A DNA stretch of 45,495 nt from Reclinomonas americana ATCC 50394 (taxonomy: Eukaryota), in NCBI GenBank assembly GCA_048213135.1, contig PS015141.1, forward strand, positions 1 to 45,495, in the 5' to 3' direction. Made by a program: the position numbers and the translations under genes. Positions 3,762 through 44,300 of the stretch are shown piece by piece. The notes beneath the pieces are model-generated. The model did no database searches. It was not told the DNA's origin and saw only the letters and a list, made by a program, of their open reading frames with translations. Positions within the stretch are counted from its first letter, which is position 1; each line of letters opens with the position of its first letter.

Positions 3762-6151
3762 AGTGGGAGGTGGAGGAGTAGACCGACAGAGAGAAGTTGA
3801 ACATAAACAGACAAAGAGAAGAAGAGCAGCTAAGGAGAAAAAGACGGACTGCGTGTGTGACCGACTGACAAGTACACAAACAAACCACGGTTTTGAGACA
3901 CAGGTGCAGAGAGAGAGGGAGGAAGAGCAATACAGTGTGAAAAAACAAACGTACACACCGAAAGAGAGATAGAGAGAGAAACAAACAAGAGAGGGACGAA
4001 GGAAAGAAGTCGAAAGACGAGCAGTGAAAGAAGGGAACGGGAGAACGAGTGGAAGCGAAATGAGTGACAGTCAGACAGACAGACCAAACACAGTCAGAGA
4101 AGAGAGACAGAGCATTCTCCTGCAACGCATCCCTTTTGCCCATCTGCCCATCTCCCTTCCCCAGCAACTCACCCCTGCACGTCAATGAACGACGCCGACG
4201 AGTCGACAAACTCAATGGTGCCATTGAAGCCAGTGTGCACAAACACCTGCGAGCCGATGTTGTAGATAATGTCGACGACCAGGCCGAACTCACGCGGATC
4301 CATGCTGGGGTCCGAGCGGAACTTGTACAGGATCGAGGATTCGGCGCCCGGGGCCAGGTTGTTGCCGTACTCGAAGCCAGTGAACTGTGCGTGGGAGGAG
4401 AAGGAGGACAGGGATGAGAGGGAGAGTGGAGGAGGGACAAGGAAGGGAGGGAGAGTGGCAAAGGAAAAGGAAGTGAGAGGGAGAAGACAAGAACAGAGAG
4501 GTGAGGGAAGAGTGGCAAGTGAGCAACATGAATGGAAGTGAGAAGGAGAAAGGAAAGGAAGTGTGTGCCACACATGAGAGTGAGAGGGAGAAGGGAAGAA
4601 CGGGAGAGTAGAGCTTGTGCAACACGAATGAAAGTCAGAGTGAGAAGGGAATAGAGGAAGTGTGGAGAGTGTACATGAACGAGAGAAGGACAAGGACAGA
4701 GCAAGCAGAGAGAGAAGGTGGTAAGCGTGCCACACGCGTGGAAGTGAAGGAGAATGGAAGAACAACTCGTGTAACACGCATGGAAGTGAGAGAGGATGAA
4801 GGAAGAGGGGAAGTGTGGCAAGTGTGCCGCACACGGGAGTGAGAGAGAAATGAAGAAAGGGAAGTGGCAAGTGTGGTGCACGCACGGAAAAGAAGGACAA
4901 GGAAGGGACGGTGAAGAGGGGAATGGAAAGTGCTGCACGCATGGAAAGAGAGAAAAGGAAGTAGGAAGCGAGGGAGTAGAAAGCGCAAAACGCTTGGGAG
5001 TGAGAGGGACAACACGGAGTGAAAGAAGGCAGGAATAGGGAAGAGAGGGGGAGTGGCAAGTGTGCAACACTCGTGAAACGAAGAGAAAGGAAGAGCGGGA
5101 AAGTGGAACTTGTGCAACACTCATGGAAGTGACAGAAAGAAGGAACAGGGAAGACACAGAGAATGAGTGCCGTGTGCTTGTGTGTGTGCGCAACGTTGAA
5201 GAACACTTGGTCGAAATCGGTGGGGCTGGTCAGGCGAGCGTAAGCCTGCGAGATATTGAAATGCAGCTCGTCGTTCTGGTTGAACAGGCCAAACACCACA
5301 TCCACCACAGCGCCAACGGGGAACTCTGCACAACAAAGGGCACAAGGTGCGCGTGGGTGAGCGGCATGTCAATTTCGTTCACAAACACACGCGCGCGCGC
5401 GACAACTCGCCCCCCGCACGTTCACTCGGCGCCTACTCTCTCTGTGTGTGTCGTGGTGTGCGTGTCTTCGAGTGCATTGGTGCCACACGCAACTGCGATC
5501 GGGATAGTCGGCAAACACATGTCGGATAATCACATCCTCGTGTCCGACGCGGTACCGCAGACCACCTGCACCGTCCTCATCATCATCATCCTCATCCTTC
5601 ACACAAGGAGAGAGAACAGACAGAAGTCAGACTCGGCACAACAAACACACACGCGCGCGCGTGCCTTGGCGGGAATATGCATAGGAGAGAGATACCTCCA
5701 GCGCCGCAAGAGCCTCTTGTGCTGTCGTCGCCGCGGAATCATCGTCATCATCATCGTCATCGTCGTCGTCATCAGCGCGTGCCGGACGGCCGACAAAGCC
5801 TGCATATGATTCGGCATCAGAGAGAGGAGAGGGGGGTGCACAAAAAAAGCGCGGGAGAGACAACCCCGCCACAAACGGAGAAAAACACACATGCAAAGAC
5901 GCGCGTGTGTGCTGTGTGGAAAGCAGGAGAGATGTGCAGCAGCGGCAACGGCGTGCAGTGTGACACGGGAGCGCAGGGAGCGGGCATGTCGCAGGCCATG
6001 ATGCAACACACACGCGACAACACACGCGCGTAGACAACAGCGCGTGGAGGACACGACAAAGGAGGCATATGCACACGCGCGCACGCGTGCACTCACCGAC
6101 AAGCAGCAGTCCGAGCAACAGGCAGACGAGCAGCCACTTCGCCGTCGACAT
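2958..6151 (-). CDS. SSR1: Translocon-associated protein subunit alpha (TRAP-alpha), 6 exons: 6151-6097, 5799-5696, 5596-5494, 5325-5195, 4384-4173, 3225-2958
   Basis: Signal peptide MSTAKWLLVCLLLGLLLVG, acidic poly-D region, lumenal domain KFPVGAVVDVVFGLFN...PTDFDQVFFNFTGFEYG...PREFGLVVDIIY...FNGTIEFVD, one TM helix (GLFAYLMLLAIFGGLGFLVY) and a basic tail. All splice phases are compatible. Confidence 0.92.
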
Positions 6152-6947: not shown

Positions 6948-6998
<51 letters not shown>

Positions 6999-7279
6999 AG
7001 GCTGTGTGTGTGTTTGTGTGAGAGAGAGAGAGTGTGTGTGTGAGAAGGGAGTGGAGTGGGTGGAGTGGCTTGAGAGAGAGAACAGAGTGGGGAGCTAAAC
7101 TTCCGATGATTTCGCACAGATTGAGAGAGACAACGGAAAGTGAGACAGAGAGAGAGAGAGAGAGAGTGAGTGAGTGAGTGAGTGAGTGTGAGAGAGAGAC
7201 TGAGAGAGACTGAGAGAGAGAAAGAGAGTGAGAAAGAGAGTGAGAGAGAGAAATGAGAGAGAGAGAGAGAGAGAGAGAT

Positions 7280-7860: not shown

Positions 7861-7922
7861 ATCTCCCTTTCTCATATCTCACGTGCATATCACTCTGCAG
7901 ACCTCTTCCTCCACCACCATGG

Positions 7923-9376
7923 ATGCCTAGCAACACACGCAGTCCATCATCACCAGCGCCCGGCGGCGACGCGCGGTCGAATCGATCGCCCGTTCGATTG
8001 TTGCGTCTCCTTATCCGCCCTTTTCCCTTCCATTCCCCCCTTTCCCCCTCACTCTTCTCCCCCCACACGAAAGGGCCCCCGCCACCACCGCCCCCGCTGG
8101 CGCCGCCGAACGCGCCGCCCACCGCGCCAACTTGACCACCAGCAAGACGTCGGGCGGCATTGGCCTGCTCACCCGCCACATGCACGAGTCGCGACAGAAT
8201 CACACCGCCGACGCCGATGCGTTGAAGGAGCTGCAGAATGACTTGCGCATGCTGGAGGCGCGGAGAGCGGAACTCAAGGGCAAGATCGACGAGGATGAGG
8301 AGTGGCTGCGGGGATATGAGACAGTTAAGTGGAGGGCGGGGAGAAGGGAAGGGGGTGAAGGGAGAGGGAGCAAGGAGATGAATGTGGTTGTCGATGTGTG
8401 TCTGTCTTTGTGCGTGTTGGCATGTCTGTGATTGCGTGGAACAACTGGGTGGCAAGGGAGAGTAGAGGTGGCCAGTGTGTCTGTCGATGTGTGTCTGTCT
8501 TTGCATGTGTTGGGATGTCTGTGAAGATGTGCGATTGCGTGGCAACAACTGAGTGGCAAGGGAGAGTAGAGGTGGCCAATGTGTTTCGATGTGTGTCTGT
8601 CTTGTGTGTCTGTCTTGTGTGTCTGTCTTTGTGTGTTAGCATGTTCTGTGAAGATGCGTGATTGCGTGGCAGCAATAAGTATTTTCTCGTGTGTATTGTT
8701 GTGTCTTGTTTATCCTCCTCTTGTGCTCCTCCTCCTTCTCTTCATTGTGCCTCTCTGTCTCTGTCTCTCTTCCCCTTTCGGAGAGAAGAGAAGAAAAGAG
8801 GTGAAAAGAAGCGATCTACCTGATGTATTTAAGTGACCGAAGGGTGAGAGGGAGGGAGAGAGGGAGAGGGAGAGCGATGTGCGTGGCAAATGCAGTGGAG
8901 GAATACAGCGAATGTTCTCTACTCTGTCCGAGCGTGTGTGAGAGAGAGAGAGAGAGATGAGACGAGAGCGAAAGGTTCGCAGCACACACGAGAGACGCGT
9001 GATGCTGTGAATATGTGTGTGTCGTGTAGTGTTGATTGAGTGTGCGAGGTACATGCGTACTGACGCAGATGATTCTTCTCGTCCTCCATCCTATCACGTT
9101 TCGTCTCACTTTTCTTCTTGTCGCACACTGCTCCCTCTCCTTCCCCGCCTCCAGAAGATGTGTGATTTCTAATTTTTGCACGATTCGTGTGTTTGTGCAC
9201 TCATCCCTCGTCCCCTTTTGCAGGAATTCAAGCCCTTCCGTCAGCGCTACGACAAGCTGATGGGTGAAATGGACACCCTGGTCGTCGACGCGCGCATCAA
9301 GTACAAGGAATCACTCCAGTTCCTCATCACCGAGCTCGATTTCAATCCCTCCTTCAAGCGATGGTACCAGGCGTGA
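7923..9376 (+). CDS. Small coiled-coil protein (~159 aa), 3 exons: 7923-7999, 8074-8323, 9224-9376
   Basis: Phase-compatible exons with strong C/G codon bias: ...DALKELQNDLRMLEARRAELKGKIDEDEEWLRGYET/EFKPFRQRYDKLMGEMDTLVVDARIKYKESLQFLITELDFNPSFKRWYQA*. Confidence 0.8.
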
Positions 9377-9998: not shown

Positions 9999-12900
9999 CT
10001 ACTCGCCACCCCCACTGATATTCGCGTCCGCGTCAACGTCGACACTGGACGGTGCATCACGCATTTTCTCCAGCTGCTGGAAGTAAAGCAGGCGCTCCCG
10101 CCGCGACTTGAGGTAGTCGGGGTTGGTTTGCTTCAGCACCTTGGAGGCCGAGGCCGCCACGTCGGCGACGGCCACCGACGACCGCGGTGAGCTGGGATCG
10201 CCCGCGGCCGCCGTCGGTAGTGGAATGGGGGCGGGTCGTGGTGGGAGCGGCACTGGCTGCAGGGCGGGGGCGTCCTGCTGGTCGCTGAGTGCCGCCGGAT
10301 TGGTGCTGCGGTACATGTCGTCGGTGTTGATGGGCCTCGCACGCGGCAGGGGCACCGAGGTCGGCGGTCCACCCAACGACAACGATGACGACGAGGCAGG
10401 AATGGGCACGGGCAAGACGGCCACGGCCACCGGCACGCCGCCACTGGATCGTGGTGGTGGTGAGCTGGCATTCTGCGCGGGTTGCGGTCGCTTGCCGTAG
10501 CCGAGTGCGGCGGGCTCGCGACGAGCACCAGTGCTCTGCGGCGGCGGGGTCACGCGCTGCTGCCGGGCCGACTGCCGGTTCGGTTGTGGCGGCACCTGCA
10601 GCGGAGGAGTCTCTGGCCGCTTGGCAGGCTTGGGTGGTGTGTGCTGCCGTGGTGGCGCAATCGGCGACGAAATGGCGGCGGCGTACATGTTGACGAGGTC
10701 GTCGGTGCGCACCGGCGTCATCGGCACCACTGGCGCCGACGGAAGTGCAGCCTGGGCGGCAGGTGGCGCGGCTGCCGCAGGAGCAGCAGCAGCTGCCGCT
10801 GGAGGACCGCGCGCCTGTGCCTTGGGGACCTGGCGAATCGCCAAGCTGGGCGGTGCATTGGCGACCTCCACCGTCCTCGGCGGCGCCGACTTGGCCTGAC
10901 GCACAGCCGGTCGCGCGTCCGGTGGTGACAGCTGAATGCGTGCCTCGGGCGCGCGCTGTGCCTGCTGCGAGGGCGGTGGCTGGCGGTCGTCGGCGCCCGT
11001 GTACATGGCCTCCACCACTTGCGAGTGTGGTCGCTCAAAGTCGTCTGGCTCGAGGAATTCGGCTTGCTCTGAGGAGGGGGAAGGGAAGTGAGGAAAAGGG
11101 GAGGAGGGGAGGGAGAGGGAAAGGGGGAGAGAGGGAAAGGGGGAGAGGGAGGGAAAGGGGGCGAGGGAAAGGGGGCGAGGGAAAGGGGGAGAGGGAAAGG
11201 GGAGTGAGGGAAAGAGGTACAAGGGATTAAGAAAAAGGGAGTGAGGGAATAGAGTCGCCACTTCCGTCTCCAATCTTGCTCTCACTTTTTGTCACGCCTC
11301 CCTGCTCTTCCTTCTCTTTCAGAGACGATGATAGTGATGAACAAGAGAGAGTGGATTTTCTGCAAGGGATCGCGTCTCGTGCCTCTGAAAGAATCACAAA
11401 CAAAGAAGCAACAGAGAGGAACGAAATGAAACGACAACAGAGTGAATGTGGAACAAGAGACTGATAGCCACGGAAAGACGGATAGTCGGCGAGCGTGGGA
11501 CAGCATAAAGTGGAGAGAGAGAGAGAGAGCGCGGCAAATAGCCTGCGATAGCGAGATAGACAAACACAGTGCCAGAGAGATAGACACAGAGCCGGAGACA
11601 GAAAAATGCAAGAACCTCACACCAAAGGATGCACAGAGGCAAGACAACAACACACATCTCTCTTGCTCTCTCTCTCCCTCTCTTACTCCAACAACACACC
11701 CTTCATGTCCACGGCAACCTCATCACGCGATCGGTTGCGATCGGGCGATTGATGACGCGGTCGTCGAGCGGCCACAGTTTCCACTCGGTTCGACGAGAGT
11801 GAGTCGGCCGGTCGAGGTGGCGGTGGCGGTGGCTCAGCACCCAGCTGTAAATTCGTGAGACAGAATTCAACACATGCAGCAAACCACGAGAACGCCACTC
11901 ACCCCATCACGTCTCGGCGACACCGACTGCGCGGCGGTGCTCATGGCCGTGGCACGCTCCATGGCCGCCATAACAGCTCGCGGCGGCGAAATGAGAGCGT
12001 GCGGGGTGCGCACGGGCGAGCCGGTGGGGTCGCGGCGCACGGCATCCACGTCGAGTCTGATTTGGTTGACCATGCTCTCCAGCCGCTGCGGTGGCGTGTC
12101 GGGCAAGTGCACGTCGGCGGGTGGAGGTGTTCTACAACAGAAGTGCGTGAGTCTCTACCCGCCACATATTCGACAACAAGTAGCAACAACTGCGCAACTT
12201 TCTTCTCGCCGCCAATCGTCGACGCAATCGCGCCTCCTCTTCGTGATCGTCAGTGTTGTGCCGATGTCGCCGATCGGACTTTCGCCTGTCTCCATCCTGC
12301 GTCGGTCGTTGTTGCTCGTTGCGCTTCGTCGCCTCACTCGCCTCGTCCGTCTCCGTGTCGGTGACAATGACCAGCACGCGCTCGGGCGACTCGGGGGGAT
12401 CGGCAGCCAGGCGACCGAGGCGGCGGCGGGGTGCCGCGGCGGCAGGGACAGGGGAGGGTGACTGTGGGGAGAGGGAGAGGGTGAGGGTGAGGGGAAGGGG
12501 AGGAAAAGGGGAAGGGGAAGGAAAAAGGGGGAGAAGGAAGAGGGAAGGGAGAGTGAAAGGGAAGGGGGAGAGAAAGGGGAGAGTGAAAGGGGGAGAGTGN
12601 NNNNNNNNNNNNNNNNNNNNNNNNNNNNNNNNNNNNNNNNNNNNNNNNNNNNNNNNNNNNNNNNNNNNNNNNNNNNNNNNNNNNNNNNNNNNNNNNNNNN
12701 NNNNNNNNNNNNNNNNNNNNNNNNNNNNNNNNNNNNNNNNNNNNNNNNNNNNNNNNNNNNNNNNNNNNNNNNNNNNNNNNNNNNNNNNNNNNNNNNNNNN
12801 NNNNNNNNNNNNNNNNNNNNNNNNNNNNNNNNNNNNNNNNNNNNNNNNNNNNNNNNNNNNNNNNNNNNNNNNNNNNNNNNNNNNNNNNNNNNNNNNNNNN

Positions 12901-15900
12901 NNNNNNNNNNNNNNNNNNNNNNNNNNNNNNNNNNNNNNNNNNNNNNNNNNNNNNNNNNNNNNNNNNNNNNNNNNNNNNNNNNNNNNNNNNNNNNNNNNNN
13001 NNGGGGAGAGAGAGGGGGAGTGAAAGGGGAGAGAGAGGGGGAGTGAAAGGGGAGAGTGATGGGGGGAGTGAAAGGGGGGAGTGATGGGGGGAGTGAAAGG
13101 GGGAGTGAATGGAGGAGCAAAGAGGACGAAAGAAAAAGTGGGGAAAAAGGGGGAGCGAAAGGCGCGCCGCAAGCAACACGAGCCCCAAATCGAGGAGAAG
13201 CAGGATACAAAAGGTGATCAAAGAGGAGCTCACAAGCAAGGGAATCAGACAGGCGAGCAGCACAGTTCTCTTGTTTTTCACGCACCCTATCACGCGTGAC
13301 ACCCGATTGCAAAATGCGCACGGTGCCAGTGGTGCCCGGGTCGGTGGTGGCCGGTGGAGAGCCTCGTGGCTGCAAGAAGGTGGCGTCTCGCGTGAGTGAA
13401 CAATAAAGACGCGAAGAGCAATTACAGTAGCACGCAACTGGGGACGCGCGTCGACGGAGCGGTGACATGTCAGAGTCCGATGACAGCGGTGGCGGGGAAA
13501 TGTCTTGTTGCTGGATGCCCTTGTTGCGGCGACCGCGAGCACGTCGAGAAGTCTTCCTGTCGCCGGGTGGCGGCGATTCGGAGCTCTCCTGCGGCTGATG
13601 GTGAGTCGCAGAGCAAAAAAAAAAAATCATTCAAAGCCACACACGCGCAACTCGTGACTGCGGAGTGCGGCGACCGCGCCGACGTCCGCCACCCGGTGAC
13701 GGGCGGTACTCGTCACCAGGCTCAGGAGAGGGGAGCGCAAACGGACTGTCAAAGTCGCCGTACGCCGTGCCCTGTGCGTATCGGCGATGGCGGTCGATGC
13801 TGGCCTCGGATCGGGGCGTCGGTGAGCCGCGCCGTGAGGGCGTCTGCACCAGCTCCAGCTCCAGCGACTGCAAATGCGCAATCTCCTTGCGCACTCGCCG
13901 AATCTGTCGCAGGCGCGTGGCTTGCGCCGCCAGCAGGTCCTCGAATTCGGTGGAGCCGCCGGAGAACTCGTCGTCGTCTTCGCCGTCGCCACTCGCCGGC
14001 CGCACGCGAATGCCCGAGGCCATCAGCGACTCGATCTGCGGTGAGGGTAAGGGGATGAGCGGAGAGAGAAAGAAGTGATAAACGAGAACAAGACGCACCT
14101 GCTCGTGCTGGTTGACCAGGTGCTTTTCCTCGGCTTCGAGCTTGCGAAGTCGATCGCGAATGTTGCGCTTCTGGCGCTCAATCTGCGGGAATGGAAGATG
14201 CGAAAGTGAGCGACGAGAGTGGGGGGAGCGAGAGTGGGGGAACGAGAGTGGGGGAGAGAGAGAGAGAGAGAAAGGCGGAGAACGAGAGTGGGGGAGAACG
14301 AGAGTGGGGGAAACGAGAGTGGGGGACACGAGAGTGGGGGAAACGAGAGCGGGGGAAACGAGAGTGGGGGAGAACGACAGTGGGGGAGAACGACAGTGGG
14401 GGAGAACGAGAGTGGGGGAGAACGAGAGTGGGAGGAACTAGAGACGAGAGTGGGGGAAACGAGAGTGCGGTGAACGAGAGTGCGGTGAACGAGAGTGCGG
14501 TGAACGAGAGTGCGGTGAACGAGAGTGGGGAGAGCGAGTGTGGGGGAAACGAGTGTGGGGGAAACGAGAGTGGGGAAACGAGAGTGCGGTGAACGAGAGT
14601 GCGGTGAACGAGAGTGCGGTGAACGAGAGCGCGGAGAACGAGAGTGCGGAGAACGAGAGCGCGGAGAACGACAGTGGCCAAAAGACAGAGAGCAACAAGA
14701 GTGCGAAACCAAAGTCGGAAAAAGAGTGGGAACGTATAAGATCGAAATAAATGAGAATGTGGGAAAGAGTAAAGGAACACCAGTGATTAAAAGACAGGGA
14801 GAAACTAAAGGGGAAAATAAAGAAGGGAAACGTGCATGCCACGGGGGAGAACAAGAGCAGCAGAAAAGAGTGTAAAAAACGAGAAGTTGGGCAGAGTCTC
14901 GATATTTCCCTCCCCCCTCATCCCCTTCCCCCTCTGCCCCTCTCCCCTTTCCTCTCCCCCTTTCCCCCTTTACCCTTCCCCTTCCCCCCATCCCTTCCAC
15001 CCTTCCCCCCATCCCTTCCACCCTTCCCCCCGACATACCTCCTCCTGCGCCCTCCGCCGCTCCTCCTCATCCAACCGATACGAGTCGGCGCGAGCCGCAG
15101 CCGCCGCCAGCACCCTCTGCGCGGCCAACCGACGAGCCGACGGGTGCTGGTCCTGCTCCTCGTCCTCGTCGTCGACCGACAAATCATCGGCGCCGGCCAC
15201 CACCCGCGCATCGTCGCTCGTGGCCTCCACCGGCGCCGCCATGTAGCCCTCAATGAGCACCGCCTCACGCATCATGCGCTGGCGAGCACGCTCATCACGC
15301 GCGGCCTCCGCGTCTCCAAAGAACCACCGAAACGCCATGGAAAACAGCAGCGCAACCATGCCCGGCCCCGGCGACATGTACGTCAGCTCGTTGCGATCTG
15401 AGCATGAGACAGCAACACATAAAAAAACATACTGGATCAGACACACACACACACGCATGGAACAGCACAGCAATGGATCTACATAGCACCGATGCACGCT
15501 ACACAACGCGATGACGGTCGCGCGTGAGATGACGATTCTCTCTCACAATCGCGCGTGAGATATCGGAATATTTCGTCATGACACTCGCTGATGCACACTC
15601 TCTCTCTCTCACTTTCTCAGTCGCTCTTTGTCGCTCTGTGTGTAAGAGTGTGTGCGTGTGCTCGACGCAACTGTCATCCAAAAACAAGACATCGGCCACT
15701 CGCTCCGTCGCGCCTCCCGCCACCTGCGCACGCACAACGCCCGCTCTTCTCCTCCCCCTCTGCTGCTGCGACTGCGACTGCTGCTGCCGCCCACGCCCAC
15801 TGGTCGACATCGACGCCGGCGATCGATGCTCCTCCTCGTCCTCCTCCTCCTCATCATCATCATGGATGCGACGTTGCGGCGGCGGCGGGGAACGATCGCG

Positions 15901-24714: not shown

Positions 24715-27700
24715 CACTACGCACCCCCCCACTGGCGACCACGTGGCGGCGCAGACGGCTCCGAGTCACGCACGCCTCCAGGCACCTCCACCACGGCAGC
24801 CGCCCCCGGCAATGCTGCTCGCACCCAGGTAATCCCTTTCCTCCTTTCCACCCTCCCCCTCACCCGCATCTCATCTCCCGCGCCAGCAGCGCGCCGTTCG
24901 TCGCGTTCGCTTCGAGGGCGACGCCGATGCCGCGGTGCAGAGTGCGGCAGCGGGCGACGTGGACACGAGTGCTGACGACGACGAGCTGCGCCTGCTGATG
25001 ATGGTGCGACGGCTGCGCGATGTGTATCGTCAGCGATCGGGGGCGGCCGCGTCGGCGCTCCGGTGGCCCGACAAGCTGCGCGAGACGGAGCAGTTGGCGC
25101 ACAGTGTGCGGCTGCTGGTCGAGGGCACTGGCGGGGACTCGTTACTGCACGAGGAGTCGGCGTTGGACGACAGCCTCATGCGACGAGCTGCGCAGACGCC
25201 TTTGCGGCTGGTTGGCGCGGATGAGTTCCACTCGGCGGTCGGTGGATTGGGTCGTGAGCTGAAGGTTAGAGGCCGACTACGATCTCTCCCTCCCTCTCCT
25301 TCCTCTGACACATTCGCCGGCTGTAGGAGACCGTGACGACCTTGTCATCCAGCGTGCAAAGCCGATTGGGTTCGCTGGAATCGAGCTTGCAGGAGCGCAG
25401 TTCTCATTCTCGTGACGAGAGGTATGTTGTGTCTCACGCCAGCCTTCGCAGTGTGGTGCTTGTCTCTCTCATGTTCCCTCGCAGCGAGCGACTGCGTGCC
25501 GATGTGGTGGAATTGCGCCGCGAAGTGGCACATTTGCGCGGTCTGGTGGAGTTCTCCGCCGCCGCCGTGCAGCAACAACAGCAGCAACAGCAGCAGCAAC
25601 TGCAACAGCAGGCGCGACAGATTCAGTTCATATCACCGCTGGCGGCCACCCCCGCCGGTCTGAGTTATCAACAGACGCCCGGCTTCGACGTGGCGCAGTC
25701 GACGGCCGCCGCGCTGTTTGTCAATCCTGCCGGTTCCATGTCGGCTCCCGTTACTGTTACTCTGGGAGGCGGTGATTCGATGCGGTTCGCCAATTGCTCT
25801 GTTCCTGACTTGCGATACTGCGTCTGCTGACTTCAGGAGATGATGCACAGCGCGCCGATCAGTGCCAGTCCAGCTGTCACACAGGTGTGTGAAGAGCGAT
25901 TGCATTCATTTCCTTCTTTGATGCTCACTGCCATATCCCGCCAGGTGCACCGTCCACCATCGCCGTCGCCGCGACCGCCACTCGCGAACGGGTAATGCTC
26001 GTCATCACAGTCGCCAAATTGAACTCCTCTCATTACTTCTCGCACAGCACTTCCACTGTACAGCCGACATCGACCGCTCAAACTCCATCATCGCCGCCCA
26101 CACGGTACGTGCATCACCAAGGATGACGACAGATGTGACGCTCATCCCGCATTTGCAGGCGCGATTCGTCGCCTTCACAGCGGCGACCTGCCCCACCGGC
26201 TCGTTCTTCCTTCCCCACGTCGGCAGCAACAGCGATGAATCCGCCTCCCAGAGCCACACCACCAGTGGAGAGCACTCGGACTGCTGAGAGCGAGACGACC
26301 AAGTCGGAGAGCAGTGCAGCGGATGACAGCAAGAGCAACGGCTATGCCAACAATAGCACAGGGTTGCGTCGGCGCAGAAGATATAAGCGCGGCTTATCAA
26401 TCTCTGTGTCGATTCTCGCTGTGTCGCTGTGTCGCTCATCGCTGTGTCGCTCATCGCTGTGTCGCTCATCGCTGTGTCGCTCCTCTCGCTGTGTCGCTCG
26501 CTCATCGCTCTGTCGCTCATCGCTCTGTCGCTCATCGCTCTGTCGCTCATCGCTGTGTCGCTCATCGCTGTGTCGCTCATCGCTGTGTCGCTCATCGCTG
26601 TGTCGCTCATCGCTGTGTCGCTCATCGCTGTGTCGCTCATCGCTGTGTCGCTCATCGCTGTGTCGCTCATCGCTGTGTCGCTCCTCTCGCTGTGTCGCTC
26701 CTCACGCTGTGTCGCTCCTCACGCTGTGTCGCTCCTCTCGCTGTGTCGCTCATTGCTGTGTCGCTCATCGCTCTGTCGCTCATCGCTGTGTCGCTCCTAT
26801 CGCTGTGCCGCTCCTCTCGCTGTGCCGCTCCTCNNNNNNNNNNNNNNNNNNNNNNNNNNNNNNNNNNNNNNNNNNNNNNNNNNNNNNNNNNNNNNNNNNN
26901 NNNNNNNNNNNNNNNNNNNNNNNNNNNNNNNNNNNNNNNNNNNNNNNNNNNNNNNNNNNCTCGCTGTGTCGCTCCTCTCGCTGTGTCGCTCCTCTCGCTG
27001 TGTCGCTCCTCTCGCAGTGTCGCTCCTCTCGCTGCGTCGCTCCTCTCGTTGTTGTCGCTCATTGCCGATTCCTATGCGCACAGCACTATCGTACGGTACA
27101 TTGGCGGAAGTGCTGTGACAGCATTCCCTGAGCGGTCTTCGAGCGCCACTGACCTGGCGACACCGGCTGCACGTTTCGTTGTTGCTGCTTTCACGCCGCC
27201 TGTACTTTTGCTGACTTTCCAGCGCTGCTTCAGCCACTGGAGATGATGGACACAGTTCGAATAGCAGCGTCGTGAACCTGGATGAATGGATCGGCGGTTC
27301 AGGTCTGCTCTCGTGCACCTTTCCTCTCTGCTGGACGCTATTGTCGCTGGCCCTCATTTTTTGTGTCATTACAAAAAGGTGTCGGTTTTGACATTCCGTC
27401 GTTTGAGGACATTACGAGTGTTGTGACAACGTTGCGTGCGCTGCGTCGCTGTCGTTTTCCCTCATCGATCACAAGGCTGATGCATTGCTTGTTTACAGTC
27501 CATTGACCACCATGGATGGTTCCGTCAACGAATTCCGTGCTTCTCGACCTGTTTCATCTGCAGCGGGTGGTGCGTGCTGGCTCTGCTATCTTGCCTCCTG
27601 TATTATCCTGACCATGATACGTGCAGCCACTGCACGGCCTCCCGCGCTTCCGACACCGGCTGTGGAGACAGTGCCGGCTGCCCGTCCTCCGAAGCGCGCC

Positions 27701-30700
27701 GCTCGCATTGAAGAGGAATCCGATGCCGTTGCGTTACTGTGCCTAGTGGATGCGACGGGACTTTCTTTCTCATTCTCGTTGTGGTGTAGGAGTTTCGCGA
27801 ATCGCTGAAGAAGACGCTGTCGCAGCAGAGTGATGACCCGAAGCTCAAAGAGTCGAAGCTCATGTCATTCTTTGCCAAGCTCAGCACCGGCGAGTTCCAG
27901 CTCGAAGGCCGAGATGTTGCGTCCGTCGTCTTCTGTGTCAGTTTATTGTTGTGTATTCATTGGCGTTTGCAGCTTGTGTCAACACCCGTGTCGGCGCCGG
28001 CTGTGCCCATGCATCAAAAGTGGTTTGACGATGAAGATGGGAATGGCTCAAAGCAGGAGAAGACTGCACAGGCGCTGGCTCGTTGCGTGAAGAGGAATGA
28101 GGGGGGATAGGGGAATGAGAGGGGGAAAGGGAGGGTGAAGATAGTCTTTCAAAGAGAGGTAGATATCCGACTTGTGAGTGCCAAGCTGGTTAACGGCGGT
28201 TGTGAGAGTTTGGACAGGTTGGTGAAGAGGTTGTACTTGTGAGAGCAAGTGAGACTGAGCGCCGGAGACTTCATGAAGAGGGTCTCGGGAGTGGAAGAGT
28301 GCGTTGGAACGCGATACAGCTCCAGAGTCGGTAACGAGGTTGTGCTTGCGAACGCAAGTAAGACTATGCTCCAGAGATACAGTGAAGAGGCTCTCGGAAT
28401 GGGAGAGTGAGTTGGAACGAGAGAAACTGCCTGAGTTGGTGAAGATGCTCTTGGGTGCACAGAGTTGAAAGAATTGCTGAAGAGTCCAGAGCATGGCGAT
28501 GAGGTTATGTTAATGTGAGTAAGAGTGGGATTGTGCTTGAAAGACTTGGAAGGCAGACTCTCGAGGTGAAAATAGACCGAAAAGAATCCTGTACGGTTAT
28601 TTTGTGGAAGAGAGTGAAGTTGCGAGTGAGTGAGAATAACTTGAGAGTGCCAACAGATTGTGAGATTTGCAGAATCAAGAGAGACATACAAAGACAACTG
28701 CATTGTGCGTTACTCTCTCTATCCTCTCTTGGCTTTCAAGTTTGCTGTTCCTCGCCTTTAACCTCCCCTTTTTGCACACGCAGGTGACCTCGACGCGTCT
28801 CTCGCTGCCGCCACGGCTGCGAATTCAGTCACCACCACCGTATCCACCGTCACAACCACGACTACCACCACTGCCACCATCGCCGCCGCGACGGTGGCCA
28901 CACCAACACCGCTGCGACCTGTGGATGCAGCTGCTGTGGGAACTCCAGCGCGCGTTGAAGAAGTGGAGGCATCATTTGCCGTATCGTCGTTTAACCAAAC
29001 GCAGGATGCGGGCGGCACTCACGGTGACGTGTCGGTGACCGGCATGTCACCGTCGGCAGGGTCGATTGAGCAGGATTCGCTGCCGTCTGCTGCACAGCCC
29101 GCTGCTGGTGTGGCGAGGAGAGCGGCTCCTGGACCGCTGCGCGTGGATCCGTTGGTGTGTGCTTTGTCGTGTGTGTGTTGTCGTATATAATATTTCATAT
29201 GTGCGCTTGTATCACTCTCCCCGTCGCATTCTCTCTCTCATTCTCGCTTTCTCTTGTTCTCCCTTTATCTCCTCGGTTTCTCTCTTTCTTGTTCTCTTTT
29301 GTTCTCGTTCTCACTCATTCTCTCGCTCTCGCTCTCGCTCTCTCTCGCTCTCGCTCTCTCTCTCGCGCGCTCTCGCTCTCGCTCTCTCTCTCGCGCGCTC
29401 TCTCTCTCGCTCTCTCTCGCTCTCGCTCTCTCTCTCGCGCGCTCTCTCTCTCGCNNNNNNNNNNNNNNNNNNNNNNNNNNNNNNNNNNNNNNNNNNNNNN
29501 NNNNNNNNNNNNNNNNNNNNNNNNNNNNNNNNNNNNNNNNNNNNNNNNNNNNNNNNNNNNNNNNNNNNNNNNNNNNNNNNNNNNNNNNNNNNNNNNNNNN
29601 NNNNNNNNNNNNNNNNNNNNNNNNNNNNNNNNNNNNNNNNNNNNNNNNNNNNNNNNNNNNNNNNNNNNNNNNNNNNNNNNNNNNNNNNNNNNNNNNNNNN
29701 NNNNNNNNNNNNNNNNNNNNNNNNNNNNNNNNNNNNNNNNNNNNNNNNNNNNNNNNNNNNNNNNNNNNNNNNNNNNNNNNNNNNNNNNNNNNNNNNNNNN
29801 NNNNNNNNNNNNNNNNNNNNNNNNNNNNNNNNNNNNNNNNNNNNNNNNNNNNNNNNNNNNNNNNNNNNNNNNNNNNNNNNNNNNNNNNNNNNNNNNNNNN
29901 NNNNNNNNNNNNNNNNNNNNNNNNNNNNNNNNNNNNNNNNNNNNNNNNNNNNNNNNNNNNNNNNNNNNNNNNNNNNNNNNNNNNNNNNNNNNNNNNNNNN
30001 NNNNNNNNNNNNNNNNNNNNNNNNNNNNNNNNNNNNNNNNNNNNNNNNNNNNNNNNNNNNNNNNNNNNNNNNNNNNNNNNNNNNNNNNNNNNNNNNNNNN
30101 NNNNNNNNNNNNNNNNNNNNNNNNNNNNNNNNNNNNNNNNNNNNNNNNNNNNNNNNNNNNNNNNNNNNNNNNNNNNNNNNNNNNNNNNNNNNNNNNNNNN
30201 NNNNNNNNNNNNNNNNNNNNNNNNNNNNNNNNNNNNNNNNNNNNNNNNNNNNNNNNNNNNNNNNNNNNNNNNNNNNNNNNNNNNNNNNNNNNNNNNNNNN
30301 NNNNNNNNNNNNNNNNNNNNNNNNNNNNNNNNNNNNNNNNNNNNNNNNNNNNNNNNNNNNNNNNNNNNNNNNNNNNNNNNNNNNNNNNNNNNNNNNNNNN
30401 NNNNNNNNNNNNNNNNNNNNNNNNNNNNNNNNNNNNNNNNNNNNNNNNNCTCGTTCTCTCTCGTTCTCGTTCTCTCTCGTTCTCGTTCTCTCTCGTTCTC
30501 GTTCTCTCTCGTTCTCGTTCTCTCTCGTTCTCGTTCTCTCTCGTTCTCGTTCTCTCTCGTTCTCGTTCTCTCTCGTTCTCGTTCTCTCTCGTTCTCGTTC
30601 TCTCTCGCCCTCACTCGCTCTCACTCGTTCTCGTTCTCTCTCGTTCTCGCTCTCTCTCGCTCTTTCTCGCTCGCTCTTGCTTCTCTCGCTCTCTCTCGCT

Positions 30701-32852: not shown

Positions 32853-33447
32853 CTCTCGCCTCCGTGCATCTCTTTCATTCATTTCAGTCACTCTCACTTT
32901 CGCTTGTTCTCACTGTGCTCACTCGTTCGCTCACTTACTTACGCTCTCCCACCTCTTCTCCCTCCCTCTCCCTTGACCCTCCCTCTCCACCTACTGCACA
33001 GCGCAAGACGACATGACGCAACACCCCTACTCATCGCGCTTCATCGACGTGTTGACGAACCTGTCGCAAGGCAAAGTGCCGAGCGACGTGCGCGTGGTGG
33101 ACGACAAGCCAAAGAATCCACACCAGCAGCCGTCGCGATCCAAGTTGACGCGCCGACCGAATCCGTGGGAGAAGAAGAAGCAGCAGCAGCCTGCATCGCA
33201 AAAGCAGGAGCCGGAGAGCACGGATGAAGTGGAATCGCTGGCCGCTCTCGGCGAGGCATCGACGCCGATGGCAGTGGACTCGGACGACACGACGCCGTTG
33301 GCGGGTGAAGATGATGGCGAGCAGACACCGCCGCCAGCCAAGTCGGTGCTTTCGTTTGAGGATATCGACAGCGCGGCATCGAATTCGGTGACGGCGGCGC
33401 TGCTGGTGGACGCGGAGCAGGGTGCAAATGGTGGTAAAAATGAATGA
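24715..33447 (+). CDS. Large PEX39-like peroxin (~20 exons, 5' end unresolved): coiled coil, PEX7-binding-like segment, PEX39-type helical domain and KPWE-type domain
   Basis: Exon 27790-27915 gives DDPKLKESKLMSFFAKLSTGEFQLEGRD. Exons 30781-30891, 30960-31057 and 31228- give AFLRFESYNFGADEKYVTGLQKI...LRLLQIKYFVRHVQPMDLDEYQTWR. Last exon 33002-33447 gives PYSSRFIDVLTNLSQGKVPSDVRVVDDKPKNPHQQPSRSKLTRRPNPWEKK. The exons join in frame, with one ambiguous junction near 25780-25850. Confidence 0.72.
26405..27060. repeat. Intronic 15-18 bp minisatellite (TCGCTGTGTCGCTCA)
   Basis: Directly visible tandem array interrupted by a gap. Confidence 0.92.
29310..30700. repeat. Intronic CT/CGCT and 16-mer (CTCGTTCTCGTTCTCT) arrays spanning a gap
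   Basis: Directly visible on both sides of the N run. Confidence 0.85.
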
Positions 33448-35341: not shown

Positions 35342-35379
<38 letters not shown>

Positions 35380-37210: not shown

Positions 37211-37214
37211 TCTT

Positions 37215-37275
<61 letters not shown>

Positions 37276-37334
37276 ACTCACTCACTCACTCACTCACTCA
37301 CTCACTCACTCACNNNNNNNNNNNNNNNNNNNNN

Positions 37335-37431
<97 letters not shown>

Positions 37432-38370: not shown

Positions 38371-41300
38371 ATGGGTGCGGTGGCCAGTCGCGGTGAGCAT
38401 GTAGTGGATGTGGGCTCTCATGCCACTGTCGTCGAGGCCAATGGCGACTGGATGCTGAGCGAATCGGAGGGCGATGCCTCGTCGATCGCCAGTGCGGCGA
38501 TTGAGCAACCACAGCAGAGGAAGAAGAAGAAGAAGAAGAGAAAGTCGACGCGTCTGCAGGAGCATGAGTGTGCGGCGGTGGGGCGTGCCGACTGTGACAT
38601 GTATCACGAGGAGGATGGAGTGGGGTCGTCGCGGGTGGAGGTGGTGGGTGGCGCTGGCTGGGAGCACGAGTCGACGGATATATGGACGCGGGCGCTGGCG
38701 GAGTTGATTGCGTTGGAGCAGGAGGGGCCGCCGGAAGTGTGTCGCTTTAATGTGAGTGGGAAGGGGAGGAGATGAGGGAAGGAATGAGGGAAGAGATGAG
38801 GGAAAGAATGGGGGAAGGGATGAGGGAAGGAAGGGAGAGGGACGTGCTCCTCTGCGTCGCTGTGCTCCTCGCTTGTCGCTATGCTCTTGTCATAGCTATG
38901 CTCCTTGCGTCGCTGCGCTCCTTGCGTCGCTGCGCTCCTTGTCGTCGCTGTGCTCCTCCTTTGTCGCTGTGCTCCTCCTTTGTCGCTGTGCCCCACCTTT
39001 GTCGCTGTGCTCCACCTTTGTCGCTGTGCTCCACCTTTGTCGCTGTGCTCCTCCTTTGTCACTGTTCTCCTTATTGCTGCACTCCTTGTCGTCGCTGTGC
39101 TCCTTGTCGTCGCAGTGCTCCTTGTCGTCGCTGTGCTCCTTGTCGTCGCAGTGCTCCATGTCCTCGCAGTGCTCCTTGTCGTCGCTGTGCTCCTTGTCGT
39201 CGCTGTGCTCCTCTGCGTCGCTGTGCTCCTCTGCGTCGCTGTGCTCCTCTGCGTCGCTGTGCTCCTCTGCGTCGCTGTGCTCCTCTGCGTCGCTGTGCTC
39301 CTCTGCGTCGCTGTGCTCCTCTGCGTCGCTGTGCTCCTCTGCGTCGCTGTGCTCCTCTGCGTCGCTGTGCTCCTCTGNNNNNNNNNNNNNNNNNNNNNNN
39401 NNNNNNNNNNNNNNNNNNNNNNNNNNNNNNNNNNNNNNNNNNNNNNNNNNNNNNNNNNNNNNNNNNNNNNNNNNNNNNNNNNNNNNNNNNNNNNNNNNNN
39501 NNNNNNNNNNNNNNNNNNNNNNNNNNNNNNNNNNNNNNNNNNNNNNNNNNNNNNNNNNNNNNNNNNNNNNNNNNNNNNNNNNNNNNNNNNNNNNNNNNNN
39601 NNNNNNNNNNNNNNNNNNNNNNNNNNNNNNNNNNNNNNNNNNNNNNNNNNNNNNNNNNNNNNNNNNNNNNNNNNNNNNNNNNNNNNNNNNNNNNNNNNNN
39701 NNNNNNNNNNNNNNNNNNNNNNNNNNNNNNNNNNNNNNNNNNNNNNNNNNNNNNNNNNNNNNNNNNNNNNNNNNNNNNNNNNNNNNNNNNNNNNNNNNNN
39801 NNNNNNNNNNNNNNNNNNNNNNNNNNNNNNNNNNNNNNNNNNNNNNNNNNNNNNNNNNNNNNNNNNNNNNNNNNNNNNNNNNNNNNNNNNNNNNNNNNNN
39901 NNNNNNNNNNNNNNNNNNNNCGTCGCTGTGCTCCTCCTGTCGCTGTTCTCCTTGCGTCGCTGTGCTTTTTGTCGTCGCAGTGCTCCTCTCCGTCGCTGTG
40001 CTCCTTGTTGTCGCTGTGCTCCTTGTCGCTGTGCTTCTTGTCGCTGTGCTCCTTGCGTCGCTGTGCTTTTTGTCGTCGCAGTGCTCCTCTCCGTCGCTGT
40101 GCTCCTTGTTGTCGCTGTGCTCCTTGTCGCTGTGCTTCTTGTCGCTGTGCTCCTTGTCGCTGTGCTCCTTGTCGCTGTGCTTCTTGTCGCTGTGCTCCTT
40201 GCGTCGCTGTGCTCCTTGCGTCGCTGTGCTCCTTGCCTCGCTGTGCTCCTTGCGTCGCTGTGCTCCTTGCGTCGCTGTGCTCCTGTGCGTCGCTGTGTTC
40301 CTCCTACGTCGCTGTGCTCCTCCTGCGTCGCTGTGCTCCTTGTTGCTGTGCTCCTTGCGTCGCTGTGCTCCTTCCCTTCGATGTGCTCCTGCCGTCGCTG
40401 TGCTCCTTGTGTCGCTTGTTGCTCTTTCGCCCCCTTCTAGCTGTTCTTATCCTCACCGTTAGAGTTCCCGCAGGTGGTCATTGCCGGCGACAGTGGCGTC
40501 GGCAAGTCGGCGTTTATTCGCGCCGCTCTCGGTCACCAATTTGTGTCCCGCCACACGCACACTGCTGGCGTGGCCTTGCACATGATGCAGTATCGCAGTG
40601 AGGATGGGCGGCGCATTCAAGTGCAGGTTTGCAACGCAAATGTCTGATAAGCAAGTTGCGTTGACTTACTCTGCGGCGCAGTTGATTGAGCGCTCTGGCG
40701 ATCCGCGGTACCAGTGTATGACTGAGGAATATGTGCGAGCGGCTGATGCAATGATTGTGCTAATCGACTCGTCGACATTCTCCTTTGAGGCGCCTGCAGA
40801 GTCTTCGTATGGACGGTCGAAACAAGTTACGTCTCTGCGGGCGTCACTATTTATTTCTTGATTCTAATCTCTGCTTTAGTACTTTGCCAGTGCCGACGAG
40901 TATCACCCGCAAGGTGACGACGATGAGTTTGTGCGAGTGTTGCTGGGCACAAAGGTGCTGTTTGTCACCCCTGTCATTTTCACTTGCTGAATCTCACACC
41001 ATGTACAGGCCGACCTGGTGCGCGCGGAAGCCGCCATTGGTCGCCCCGGAGGAGTACCGTCGTTCCTCGCCGTCGAGGCATCGCTCAATGTCGATCGAAC
41101 CACCGGCTTGCGATACACGGCGGTGTCGGCCAAGGTACTCCCTTGCTCTTCCTCACTCATCACAACTCTCTCCACTCTCTCACCCCCCCGCAGACACACC
41201 CCGCAAGCATTCGCGACATTGTGAAGACGGTGGTGTTGCGCATTCAGCAGCGACAGGCCGAGGTGGAGCAGTGGTTTCCGGAGATGGCGTACTTTTCGCC

Positions 41301-44300
41301 GCTGTCGCTGCCGACGCTGACGCAGCACATTTGTGGCGGATGCACGCAGCAGGGTGGCAGTGTGGGGTTGTTGGGGGGTGCGCTGTCGCCGCGGTCGGTG
41401 CCGTATGCGTTTTTGTCGGCGGAGGAGGCGAGGGAGTGGAGGTTGCATGATCCGAATGTGTCGGGGTTGGATAGGAGGGGGAATCGGTTGCCGGATCCAG
41501 AGAGGGTGAGGAGGTGAGTGGGAAAAGGGAAAGGGGGAATAGGGGGAAGGGGGGAATGAGGGAAAGGGGGGAAGGGGGAAGGGGGAAGGGGGGAGGGAAA
41601 GAGGGAAGGGGCGGGGGAGGGGGAAGGTGGAAGAGGAGGTTAGCGGGGAAGGCGGAGAAGGGGGAGGAAACGGAGGAGAGAACGAAGTACAGAACGGAAG
41701 AGTGAGTGGGACGGAGTAGGGAACGGAGGAGGGAATGGAGGAGGGAATGGAGGAGGGAATGGAGGAGGGAATGGAGGAGGGAATGGAGGAGGGAATGGAG
41801 GAGGGAATGGAGGAAGAGAGGGAGAAGGCATAGAAAATAGGTGATAGTCAAGGGAAAGTGACGTAAACGAGAGTGAGGGAAGATGGATTGAGAGAGTAGA
41901 GGAAGAAATGAGTGAGAATGAATGACTGAGCGCCGAAAGAGTGAGTATGCGAGTTTACCATAGATTTTGTGAACGTCGACAGTGAGAGGGTGGAGGGCAG
42001 TGAGTGTGTGGGCTTGCTATTGAATGGATGTGTGAGAGGCTGACTGTGGTGAGAAGAAGAATGAAATGAGGCTGCTCGAGTAAGTGGACGAGTGTATGCA
42101 TGTGAATGATTTGAGAGAAGGTGTGGATGTGTGAGAAAAAGCGCCCGAGTACAACAGATTGGCAATATGAAGTAATGAGGGAAAGCAAGCCGTGAACTGA
42201 GGTGCTGTAATGGTGCATATAAAGAGTGAGGAAACTGACAGACATGGTCATGAAGAAGAATAGTTCGGGCAGATAGTGAGTCAGTTCGCTGTTGTGTTTT
42301 TTGTCTCTCTTATCGCTGTCGCTCTATCGCTGTCGCTCTTGTCGCCGTCACTTTTGTCGCTGTCACTCTTGTCGCTGTCGCTCTCGTGTGGCTGTCGCTC
42401 GTGTCGCTGTCTCGCTCGTGTCGCTGTCTCGCTCGTGTCGCTGTCGCTCTCGTCGCTGTCGCTCTCGTCGCTGTCGCTCTCGTCGCTGCCGCTCTCGTCG
42501 CTGCCGCTCTCGTCGCTGTCGCTTTCGTCGCTTTCGCTCTCGTCGCTTTCGCTCTCGTCGCTGTCGCTCTCGTCGCTGTCGCTCTCGTCGCTGTCGCTCT
42601 TGTTGCCGTCGCTCTTGTCTGTCGCTCTTATCGCTGTCGCTGTGCTCCTTGTCGCTGTGCTCCTTGTCGCTGTGCTCCTTGTCGCTGTGCTCCTTGTCGC
42701 TGTGCTCCTTGTCGCTGTGCTCCTTGTCGCTGTGCTCCATGTCGCTGTGCTCCTTGTCGCTGTGCTCCATGTCGCTGTGCTCCTTGTCGCTGTGCTCCTT
42801 GTCGCTGTGCTCCATGTCGCTGTGCTCCATGTCGCTGTGCTCCTTGTCGCCGTGCTCCTTGTCGCCGTGCTCCTTGTCGCCGTGCTCCTTGTCATTATCG
42901 CTCTTGTTGCTGTCGCTCACATTGACTTGCTGTGCATTGCCTATCTCTTTCTCTCTCCGTGTCTCGCCCCTTTCGCATTTCGCATCGCAGGGTGTATCGG
43001 AGGCTCGTCCGCCAGTTCAACCACAAGGAAGCCGCGGCTGGCGTCCATGTTGCGCCCGCCGGATACGCTCCAGAGACCGCGCCGTCGGTGGAGGAGTGGT
43101 CGGTGTTGGGTAGCCAGCCAGACGAAGTCAGCATGATCAGTGTGGAGATGGAGGGAGTGGGCGCTGGCGCACCGTGGGAGCAACATGCGGAGTACATGGA
43201 TGTGGTGAGTGGGCTTGGGAAGAAGTTGGTGGTATCTTGGCACTCAATCTCTTGTGGAGCAGGTCGACGTGAATGCCAACGACTCATGGCAGGATGACCC
43301 TGCAAACCAAGATGCGTTCTCGTATGGCGAGGCGGCGAGCAGCAGACGGCATTCTGTGACGCAGACGGTATGAAAGCAACAAGAGCAGGAACTGTGTTGA
43401 TTTGCAGTTCATCGCGCAACGCTTACAGCCCGGCGACTTTGTGACGCCGCGATTCGAGAGACGACAGAGTGTCGCGGTTGCGTTATTAGCTGGTGGTGCA
43501 TTGTCTCTTACGTTAGAACTAACTTTCCTTGACGCGCAGAGTGGGCGAGATGGGTGGACACCAGGGCGTGAGCGACGGAAGAGTATTACCGAGGTGAGCA
43601 CAGCACTTTAGTGTCACTGAAGAGAACGCTCAAGGAGCGCACTCGGTGTGCAGTGCATCCTCTCCGCAGAATTTGCACTCTCACCCTCATGCTGCGTGAT
43701 TACTCATCTACTGTTTGACTGTCGCGCAAGCACACATCGCCTGTACACGCAACAAGGTTGCATAGCAAGTGAGAGAGATTATTTGTGAGGAATAGGAGGG
43801 ATTATGTTGGAAAGATAGAGAAAATGTGTTGGTGTCGTTTGCGACACGTCTGGGAGTCGCACCGCTTGTGGGAATGAGCGGAAGACAGTTTGAAACAGGG
43901 AGTGCAGGTGTGCTGGTGTCATGTGCAGTAAGTCTGCGAGGGGCACCTTGGTGTAGAGGAAGGCATAGCGGACAATCTTTTGATGAATCCTGACATATCT
44001 GGACTTGATGCTCACAAACTTGCACAACAGAGCGGTGGGCCGTGGCCAGATTTCGAGCGGCGTCGCAGCATTGGCAGGGTGCGGTGCCCTTTACTCCTTT
44101 CACTCTGCTCTTGTGACCTCACGATCTGCGCAGCTCGGCGGCCATGAACGCCGGCAGAGCGTGACACAAGTTGCGACTGCACACCGCGCCGACTGAGATG
44201 CTTGCGTGCTCATTCCTGACTTGACACATAGCTCGGCGATGAAGACTGGTCGCTGCCGCCTGACACCACAGAGCGCCGCCGCAGTATTGTAGCAGTTGCG

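Follow-up and report, generated by a model that had tools for sequence, protein, structure and literature searches.

GTTGCG(T) as a probable variant class of 5' splice sites, with a displaced exon motif, in a 45,495-base eukaryotic scaffold

In a eukaryotic scaffold of 45,495 bases (Reclinomonas americana ATCC 50394, contig PS015141.1), 17 introns appear to begin with an unusual donor sequence, namely GTTGCG at 15 sites, GTTAAGT at 8324 (+), and GTTACGT at 40826 (+). We refer to the whole stretch, which contains nine runs of N and many tandem arrays and from which all counts below were taken, as the window. In the usual view, the U1 small nuclear RNA (snRNA) defines the start of an intron by reading, in one register, an almost universal signal resembling G/GURAGU (the slash marks the exon-intron boundary); to our knowledge, the only departures described, by shift or by bulge, are rare ones in human genes. 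Judged from the sequence, the 17 sites are in all likelihood genuine 5' splice sites, and they very probably form a large donor class in the window. Reading frame, homology, and 3' architecture show them to be intron starts, and the exon-contact preference next to them is, by the statistics given below, displaced by one base. Our preferred interpretation, to which we assign a probability of roughly 45%, is that GTTGCG(T), together with GTTAAGT and GTTACGT, represents a genuine and abundant variant donor of ordinary U2-type GT-AG introns at which U1 would bind one base displaced.

Eight gene models containing 39 GT-AG introns were curated by reading the sequence together with parser output, and donor-blind parses were used as a control for modeller bias; all spliced frames are open, with no internal stops. 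The 39 donors comprise 20 ordinary (non-GTT) and 19 GTT donors, 15 of the latter being GTTGCG, and all 17 sites under discussion are included. A first-pass annotation of this DNA had listed these sites, and every one of the 17 coordinates was found to bear the motif given for it on the strand given for it; the last exon base at these sites (A at 9, C at 4, G at 2, and T at 2) agrees with the earlier counts for A and G, and the donors lack G at +5, as had been reported. The earlier figure of 15 GTTGCG introns among roughly 60 is compatible with our 15 of 39, because not every gene was curated here. That most sites are required by frame or stops was likewise borne out, as 13 of the 17 are needed, with exceptions at 5194 (-), 13438 (-), 27916 (+), and 43477 (+). 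The GTTGCG sites are spread over five genes (two in the gene for translocon-associated protein alpha, hereafter TRAP-alpha, four in geneB, one in geneC, five in gene27k, and three in a gene with repeated RRxS motifs), and they occur in all three codon phases, so they do not reflect a coding constraint.

The remaining features of these introns resemble those of the other introns in the set. GT and AG ends are present in 17/17 of the introns in question and in 39/39 of all curated introns. A branch-like motif, CT[ACG]A[CT], lies 5-36 nucleotides (nt) before the 3' AG in 14 of the 17 and in 19 of the 22 other introns, compared with 485 of 6068 AG sites (8%), and a pyrimidine precedes the 3' AG in 16/17 and 20/22, respectively. 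Short introns of the two kinds also overlap in length (54-74 nt for GTT donors versus 40-99 nt for ordinary ones). When present on the sense strand of a curated gene, GTTGCG marks an intron start in 15 of 21 cases, compared with 5 of 11 for GTGAGT, 3 of 10 for GTGCGT, and none for five control hexamers.

Two of the sites are anchored by homology in the TRAP-alpha gene (2958-6151 (-)), which is complete, has five introns, and encodes a protein whose signal peptide is followed by an acidic stretch and whose C-terminal part contains a membrane segment. Intron 3 (5326..5493 (-); 168 nt, phase 1) begins with GTTGCGT after an exon-final A, and intron 4 (4385..5194 (-); 810 nt, phase 0) begins with GTTGCGC after C; both were also recovered by blind parses. 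Intron 4, which neither frame nor stops require, is open in frame, and the read-through frame therefore misleadingly resembles one long open reading frame (ORF). A full HMMER search with this read-through frame (4172-5368 (-)) as the query returned 103 proteins at E<=0.001, many of which match in two stretches and several of which are named translocon-associated protein alpha by their sources. The closest homolog, P0001, shares 51% identity and carries PF03896, and the nearest proteins named as TRAP-alpha come from euglenids (Jenningsia, Keelungia, and Ploeotia), Tsukubamonas, dictyostelids, and a green alga, at approximately 38-41% identity. The spliced model is colinear with 15 homologs, with no model gap at either GTTGCG junction, and the junction at intron 4 coincides with a conserved N/FT position of the homologs.

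A hidden Markov model (HMM) built from 36 homologs was then used to score six isoforms that differ in the GT-AG boundaries of introns 3 and 4 by no more than 30 bases and remain in frame and free of stops. The curated isoform scored best at 221.5 bits; a variant using the inner GT at 5488 with a shifted acceptor reached 213.0 bits (8.5 below the curated isoform), and the best rival for intron 4 reached 207.4 bits (14 below). On the strength of the colinear alignment and these scores, the two TRAP-alpha anchors proposed in the first-pass annotation stand. Other searches were less informative: single TRAP-alpha exons gave no Pfam match even at E<=10, a PDB search returned a weak match for exon 5 (E 1.3) and none for exon 4, a word-based protein search with a TRAP-alpha exon found no match, the same type of search with P0001 returned only P0001 itself and one fragment, and a metagenome scan with a TRAP-alpha exon produced 291 pattern matches, of which 0 were confirmed. 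The host's own proteins seem to be absent from the protein collections that were covered.

Donor-blind gene parsing provides evidence that does not depend on homology. A dynamic-programming parser was applied whose score combines codons with an acceptor model and intron length, every GT receiving an identical donor score. Under these flat donor scores, GTTGCG was the most frequent donor hexamer (5 of 53 introns), and in another run it accounted for 5 of 51 introns and tied with GTGAGT. In further runs at three intron penalties, with the acceptor, branch, and length models trained only on 15 introns with non-GTT donors, GTTGCG again ranked first, with 6/46, 5/38, and 6/30 introns (binomial p of 5.6e-6, 3.3e-5, and 4e-7, respectively). 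A decoy consisting of the reversed sequence yielded two genes and 11 introns in which no hexamer was used twice. Altogether, one or more blind parses selected 11 of the 17 sites. Re-weighting the parser by hexamers changed little, and unsupervised gene finding (longest-ORF self-training and a two-matrix donor mixture) was abandoned after it drifted to low-complexity and GT-repeat sequence.

The bases flanking the donors indicate how the exon motif is displaced. G occupies position -1 in 20/20 ordinary donors versus 4/19 GTT donors (Fisher p 1.5e-7), and A occupies it in 9/19 GTT versus 0/20 ordinary donors (p 4.4e-4), in keeping with the earlier proposal that the exonic motif is displaced by one base. 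At -1 the GTT donors have A in 9, C in 4, G in 4, and T in 2 cases, which nearly reproduces the composition of the ordinary donors at -2 (A in 9, G in 4, C in 3, and T in 4), and C is found at -2 in 7/19 GTT donors. On the intron side, the GTT donors have G at +6 in 17/19 and T at +7 in 13/19, and the ordinary donors have G at +5 in 15/20 and T at +6 in 11/20; the enrichment of +6 G, +7 T, and -1 A that the first-pass annotation had suggested looking for in GTT donors is visible among the 39 curated introns of the window. Used and unused copies of the same hexamer also differ: -1 A accompanies 7/15 donor copies of GTTGCG versus 4/32 non-donor copies (p 0.023), and +7 T accompanies 11/15 versus 7/32 (p 0.0012). 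Whereas their -1 G is invariant, the ordinary donors are loose at +3 to +6 (GAG 6, GCG 4, ATG 3, and others); the core ordinary signal looks like G/GT.

To count pairs, U1 was assumed to have the canonical 5' end given in PMC4856993, which may not be that of the host's U1. With this assumed end, the 15 GTTGCG donors form 4-7 Watson-Crick pairs in the shifted register versus 2-5 in the canonical one, the shifted register being better at 14 sites and equal at one; GTTAAGT at 8324 forms 8 shifted versus 3 canonical pairs, and GTTACGT at 40826 forms 7 versus 5. The canonical register wins at 20/20 ordinary donors. It also wins at two further GTT donors, GTTAGA at 25265 (6 canonical versus 3 shifted pairs) and GTTTGC at 40627 (7 versus 3), and these are counted as ordinary because the canonical register pairs better and the -1 G is kept. 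On this reckoning, the shifted class would consist of exactly the 17 sites of the first-pass annotation. Its description of them as a major intron class holds insofar as a large class is present in the window (15-17 of 39 curated introns). Its simple equation of these donors with ordinary ones carrying one extra T does not hold, as GCG occupies +4..+6 in 15/19 GTT donors versus +3..+5 in only 4/20 ordinary donors (p 3.6e-4).

These patterns suggest a mechanism that may be outlined as follows. The sequence (C)A/GUUGCGU would correspond to an ordinary nine-base site, (C)AG/GUGCGU, in which the first intron G has been replaced by U; the sole GU would then lie one base upstream, and cleavage would take place there. 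The register of U1 would be displaced by one base, with C9 pairing to +1G and U10 to -1A; +2U would be mismatched, and +3U, +6G, and +7U would take over the pairing normally made by +2, +5, and +6. The GU would be chosen at later steps, involving U6, U5, and Prp8, and pairing of U6 with the GU at +6/+7 would leave one U looped out.

Several observations weigh against the preferred interpretation, and they fall to different rivals. The GCG core, which is nearly invariant in the GTT donors and far less common at the matching ordinary positions, pairs poorly with canonical U1 (one wobble and one mismatch), and canonical U1 would pair better with GTTAAGT, which was seen only once, than with GTTGCGT. 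Because of this stereotypy, a dedicated or remodelled U1 is retained as a serious rival, although we regard it as unlikely: the donors would be real but read by a second U1 variant, or by a single non-canonical U1 complementing GUUGCGU, giving the major spliceosome two parallel specificities. The presence of +7 T in 11/15 GTTGCG donors and the relaxed -1 position, as expected if seven intron bases pair alone, agree with such an RNA, and there is precedent in the two U1 genes differing at the 5' end that are described for the diplonemid Sulcionema specki (PMC12621601) and in variant human U1 snRNAs. The enrichment of -1 A and -2 C is, however, what a shifted standard U1 predicts, and no gene for U1, U6, or another snRNA was found in the 45,495-base window with Rfam, either at gathering thresholds or at E<=1. 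A fuller version, in which a quarter to a third of introns would use a second code, A/GUUGCGU, read by a dedicated or remodelled U1 with a one-base loop-out at the U6 step, so that the major spliceosome would have two specificities, strikes us as rather improbable. In the other alternative with real donors, standard U1 would pair in its canonical register around a bulged U at +2 or +3, and the exon contacts would stay unshifted. The intron positions do fit ordinary donors once one U is skipped, this register has been validated in human (PMC4856993), and a bulged U gives the highest whole-site likelihood under the ordinary matrix (3.72 bits versus 2.67 for the shift across GTT donors, and 4.50 bits for GTTGCG donors). 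A bulge should nevertheless leave -1 G favoured through C9 of U1, yet G at this position falls from all of the ordinary donors to about a fifth of the GTT donors, and the exon positions alone score +0.10 bits when shifted versus -2.24 when unshifted; we consider an unshifted bulge very unlikely.

The sites could also be products of modelling, being in truth read-through sequence, introns starting at a neighbouring GT (for example, the one five bases inside GTTGCGT), or non-genic DNA, with the recurrence of the motif arising from composition, exon duplication, or modeller bias. The models were indeed curated with knowledge of the hypothesis. Six of the 17 sites (8000, 27431, 27916, 28082, 44170, and 44295, all (+)) were never picked by a blind parse, and these lie where the exons are very short and the crude codon model performs poorly; several blind runs preferred an inner GT (26368, 43482) or other donors (12279, 12187), and the choice between the inner GT and GTTGCG is a real ambiguity for single sites. 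Four of the 17 are unneeded for frame or stops, the site at 8000 is doubtful, being chosen only with a learned donor model, and the counts are not fully independent, since the 15 sites lie in five genes and two share their first 10 bases. Six sense-strand copies of GTTGCG in curated genes, four exonic and two intronic, are not used as donors (40655 (+), 28619 (+), 15356 (-), 21712 (+), 41235 (+), and 43049 (+)) and constitute candidate cryptic or alternative donors. Most open frames encode low-complexity proteins without a Pfam match. The excess of the hexamer is likewise modest: GTTGCG occurs 47 times on both strands (47 of 4846 GT sites, 0.97%) versus 26.5 +/- 4.65 in dinucleotide shuffles, of which 0/100 reach 47, but the expectation is 29.0 under an order-2 model and 38.5 under an order-4 model, and the raw count is weak evidence alone because the higher-order expectations come closer to 47. 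An asymmetry of GTTGCG between sense and antisense strands in genes (21 versus 8) was discarded as non-specific, as control T-rich hexamers behave likewise. Against an artefact stand the enrichment in blind parses (p 4e-7 to 3e-5) with a clean decoy, the homology scores that prefer GTTGCG over both the inner GT and the intron 4 rival, the representation of all three codon phases, the branch-like motif downstream of most sites, and the absence of a second GT at 4/15 GTTGCG sites, all of which make this explanation quite improbable.

It is hardly credible that the introns belong to a special family, whether introner-like, of the euglenid end-pairing type, or U12-type. Two of them share their first 10 bases, and euglenids, a group with end-pairing introns (PMC11170887, PMC12621601), are among the sources of the closest named TRAP-alpha proteins. 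The interiors of nine short GTTGCG introns are, however, no more alike (identity 0.54) than those of introns within the ordinary class (0.50) or between classes (0.52), and the ends of the 15 GTTGCG introns form a duplex of -7.43 kcal/mol with each other versus -7.62 kcal/mol for ends taken from different introns; introner-like and end-pairing introns were rejected because both values match their controls. The consensus of U12-type donors differs from GTTGCG(T), and the branch and acceptor features here are those of ordinary introns, so the U12 type was rejected as well.

The individual sites outside TRAP-alpha differ in how firmly they are placed. In geneB, on the minus strand, intron 1 (15398..15671; GTTGCGT, 274 nt, phase 1, -1 A) was found by blind parses and contains an in-frame stop on read-through, and the donor at 15671 was chosen in all donor-blind parses whose intron lists were inspected. 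The intron at 13589..13651 (GTTGCGC, 63 nt, -1 A) was also recovered by blind parses, and read-through there meets a stop after 6 codons. The intron at 13370..13438 (GTTGCGT, 69 nt, phase 0, -1 A) was taken by a blind parse and shows CTCAC as a branch-like motif and TTGCAG as its acceptor, although frame and stops do not demand it. The one at 12132..12198 (GTTGCGC, 67 nt, phase 2, -1 A), has a read-through that ends at a stop; its donor was taken by the blind parse at penalty -10 only, other runs using GTCCGA at 12279 or GTTGCT at 12187. Tandem in-frame acceptors occur at 13589/13595 (-), six bases apart with 13595 upstream, and at 43259/43262 (+), three bases apart, so that sequence alone does not fix the 3' junction precisely in these two cases.

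In geneC (+), the putative intron at 8000..8073 (GTTGCGT, 74 nt, acceptor AAG) is the weakest of all the sites and may precede the true start codon, for which the ATG at 8180 is an alternative. Another intron of this gene (8324..9223; GTTAAGT, 900 nt, phase 0, -1 A) has a donor chosen by a blind parse and a read-through stop within it; no homologs that could anchor 8324 were found by a word-based protein search with the last exon or by a protein-atlas search with the exon.

In gene27k (+), the frame is preserved across seven consecutive introns, five of which start with GTTGCGT. Intron 1 (26363..27222; 860 nt, -1 G) contains a tandem array and an N gap and was recovered by the blind parse at penalty -6, other blind runs taking the second GT at 26368. 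Intron 5 (27728..27789; 62 nt, phase 0, -1 C) was found by blind parses and has a length that is not a multiple of three. The other three come from the manual model and were never picked blind: intron 3 (27431..27498; 68 nt, phase 2, -1 C) is again not a multiple of three in length, intron 6 (27916..27972; 57 nt, phase 0, -1 T) is needed neither to keep the frame nor to avoid a stop, and read-through of intron 7 (28082..28783; 702 nt, phase 1, -1 C) reaches a stop after 8 codons.

A small-GTPase-like gene (+), whose exons match Ran- and Arf-like proteins, carries the GTTACGT donor in intron 2 (40826..40879; 54 nt, phase 0, -1 A), which was found by blind parses, contains a stop, and is flanked by exons that match small GTPases. 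Intron 1 of the same gene (40627..40681; GTTTGC, -1 G), also recovered by blind parses, is one of the two ordinary-register GTT donors, and the unused GTTGCGT at 40655 lies within it; in our reading of the small-GTPase alignments, homology does not separate this donor from a GTGCAG donor 6 bases upstream. The other ordinary-register GTT donor, which falls outside the shifted class, belongs to geneE (25265..25326 (+); GTTAGA, -1 G) and was found by a blind parse.

The RRxS-repeat gene (42991-45294 (+)) is made up of short exons, eight of which end two to four codons past an RRxS[IV/L] motif, an arrangement that suggests tandem duplication of an exon-intron unit for phosphorylation sites of the basophilic-kinase type. 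The donors of the units differ (GTATGA, GTTGCGT, GTGAGC, GTGCGG, GTTGCGA, GTTGCGT, and GTCCGC). Intron 3 (43477..43539; GTTGCGT, 63 nt, phase 0, -1 G) has a donor that was found blind and that directly follows an exon end just after an RRxS[IV] motif, as in 7 other exons; it is not required by frame or stops, and other blind runs used the second GT at 43482 instead. Intron 6 (44170..44231; GTTGCGA, 62 nt, phase 0, -1 A) and intron 7 (44295..44974; GTTGCGT, 680 nt, -1 A) were modelled manually and never picked blind; both contain a stop, the former is not a multiple of three in length, and the latter includes a 60-nt tandem array and shares its first 10 bases with the intron at 43477.

Beyond these genes, a tRNA-Lys (CTT) gene at 1698-1773 (-) is the sole structured RNA gene found in the window by Rfam at gathering thresholds. 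A purine-rich GGGGAA array followed by a TC-rich tract at 18100-18420 forms a long low-complexity hairpin with many sub-threshold matches to microRNA families, which were judged a composition artefact because all of them score far below gathering. Few Pfam domains were detected (Ras/Roc, CHCH, and PEX14-like KPWE, in the 300 frames of highest complexity out of 414 that have 55 codons or more), the KPWE domain having a best E of 2.2e-8 among 150 ORFs. The ORF at 33013-33447 (+) contains an NPWEKK motif and, from the six-frame translations, may be the source of that match. The most over-represented GT hexamer in the window is GTCGCT, with 164 copies versus approximately 24 expected under an order-2 model. 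Long tandem arrays with units of 15-18 nt rich in GTCGCT/TGTGCTCC are found at 26416-27060, 38844-40416, and 42302-42918 (+), in three different genes of the plus strand, where they sit inside introns or separate exons.

An organism with such sites as a major and highly stereotyped class would offer a natural system in which to study the extent to which U1 binding is uncoupled from the choice of the bond to be cleaved, the way in which U6 accommodates an additional base between that bond and the site where it pairs, and whether snRNA variants co-evolve with classes of splice sites. In practical terms, gene finders trained on donors with +5G would mis-annotate a large share of the genes in such a genome.

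Shifted and bulged registers between the 5' splice site and U1 have been established experimentally in human (PMC4856993, PMC9311317), where the shifted register defines a rare, atypical class (Roca and Krainer 2009, as cited in PMC4856993 and PMC9311317). The sites described here resemble that class in having GU followed by an extra U, no G at +5 (conventional numbering), and cleavage at the GU, and, with the assumed U1, in having its pairs displaced by one position such that +1G replaces -1G; GTTAAGT at 8324 has the very sequence of the textbook example. Unlike the rare human class, however, they account for 15-17 of the 39 curated introns in a single window, and their core is GCGU, as seen in the sequence, rather than AAGU, which canonical U1 pairs better. 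The human bulge +2/+3 register, for which 68 sites were predicted and 54 remained after curation (PMC4856993; Roca et al. 2012; Tan et al. 2016), is similar in that one U at +2/+3 is left unpaired and the downstream positions pair one step later, but the loss of -1 G argues that the exon contacts are displaced too, unlike in a simple bulge.

The two U1 genes of S. specki, which differ at their 5' ends, are described as fitting the same 5' splice-site logo about equally (PMC12621601); variant U1 snRNAs, such as these and human vU1, could let a single spliceosome recognise two kinds of donors and would explain the stereotyped GCG core. The 5' splice-site consensus is given as (G)/GTATG for three diplonemids (PMC12621601) and as GTGTG for the GT-AG introns of Euglena gracilis (PMC11170887), so that these protists have a strong G before GT and an unusual consensus on the intron side; the ordinary donors of the window likewise read G/GT (20/20). 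No GTT or GTTGCG donor class is reported for diplonemids or E. gracilis in the portions of these two articles that deal with donors, and a full-text literature search combining GUUGCG/GTTGCG with splice terms produced no splice-site class among the matches listed. Gene structure in the window differs from that of Diplonema papillatum, for which 1.6 introns per gene and a median size below 1 kb are given (PMC10161547). Register shifts and bulges as such are thus already known from human genes, whereas an abundant, stereotyped GTTGCG class would be new.

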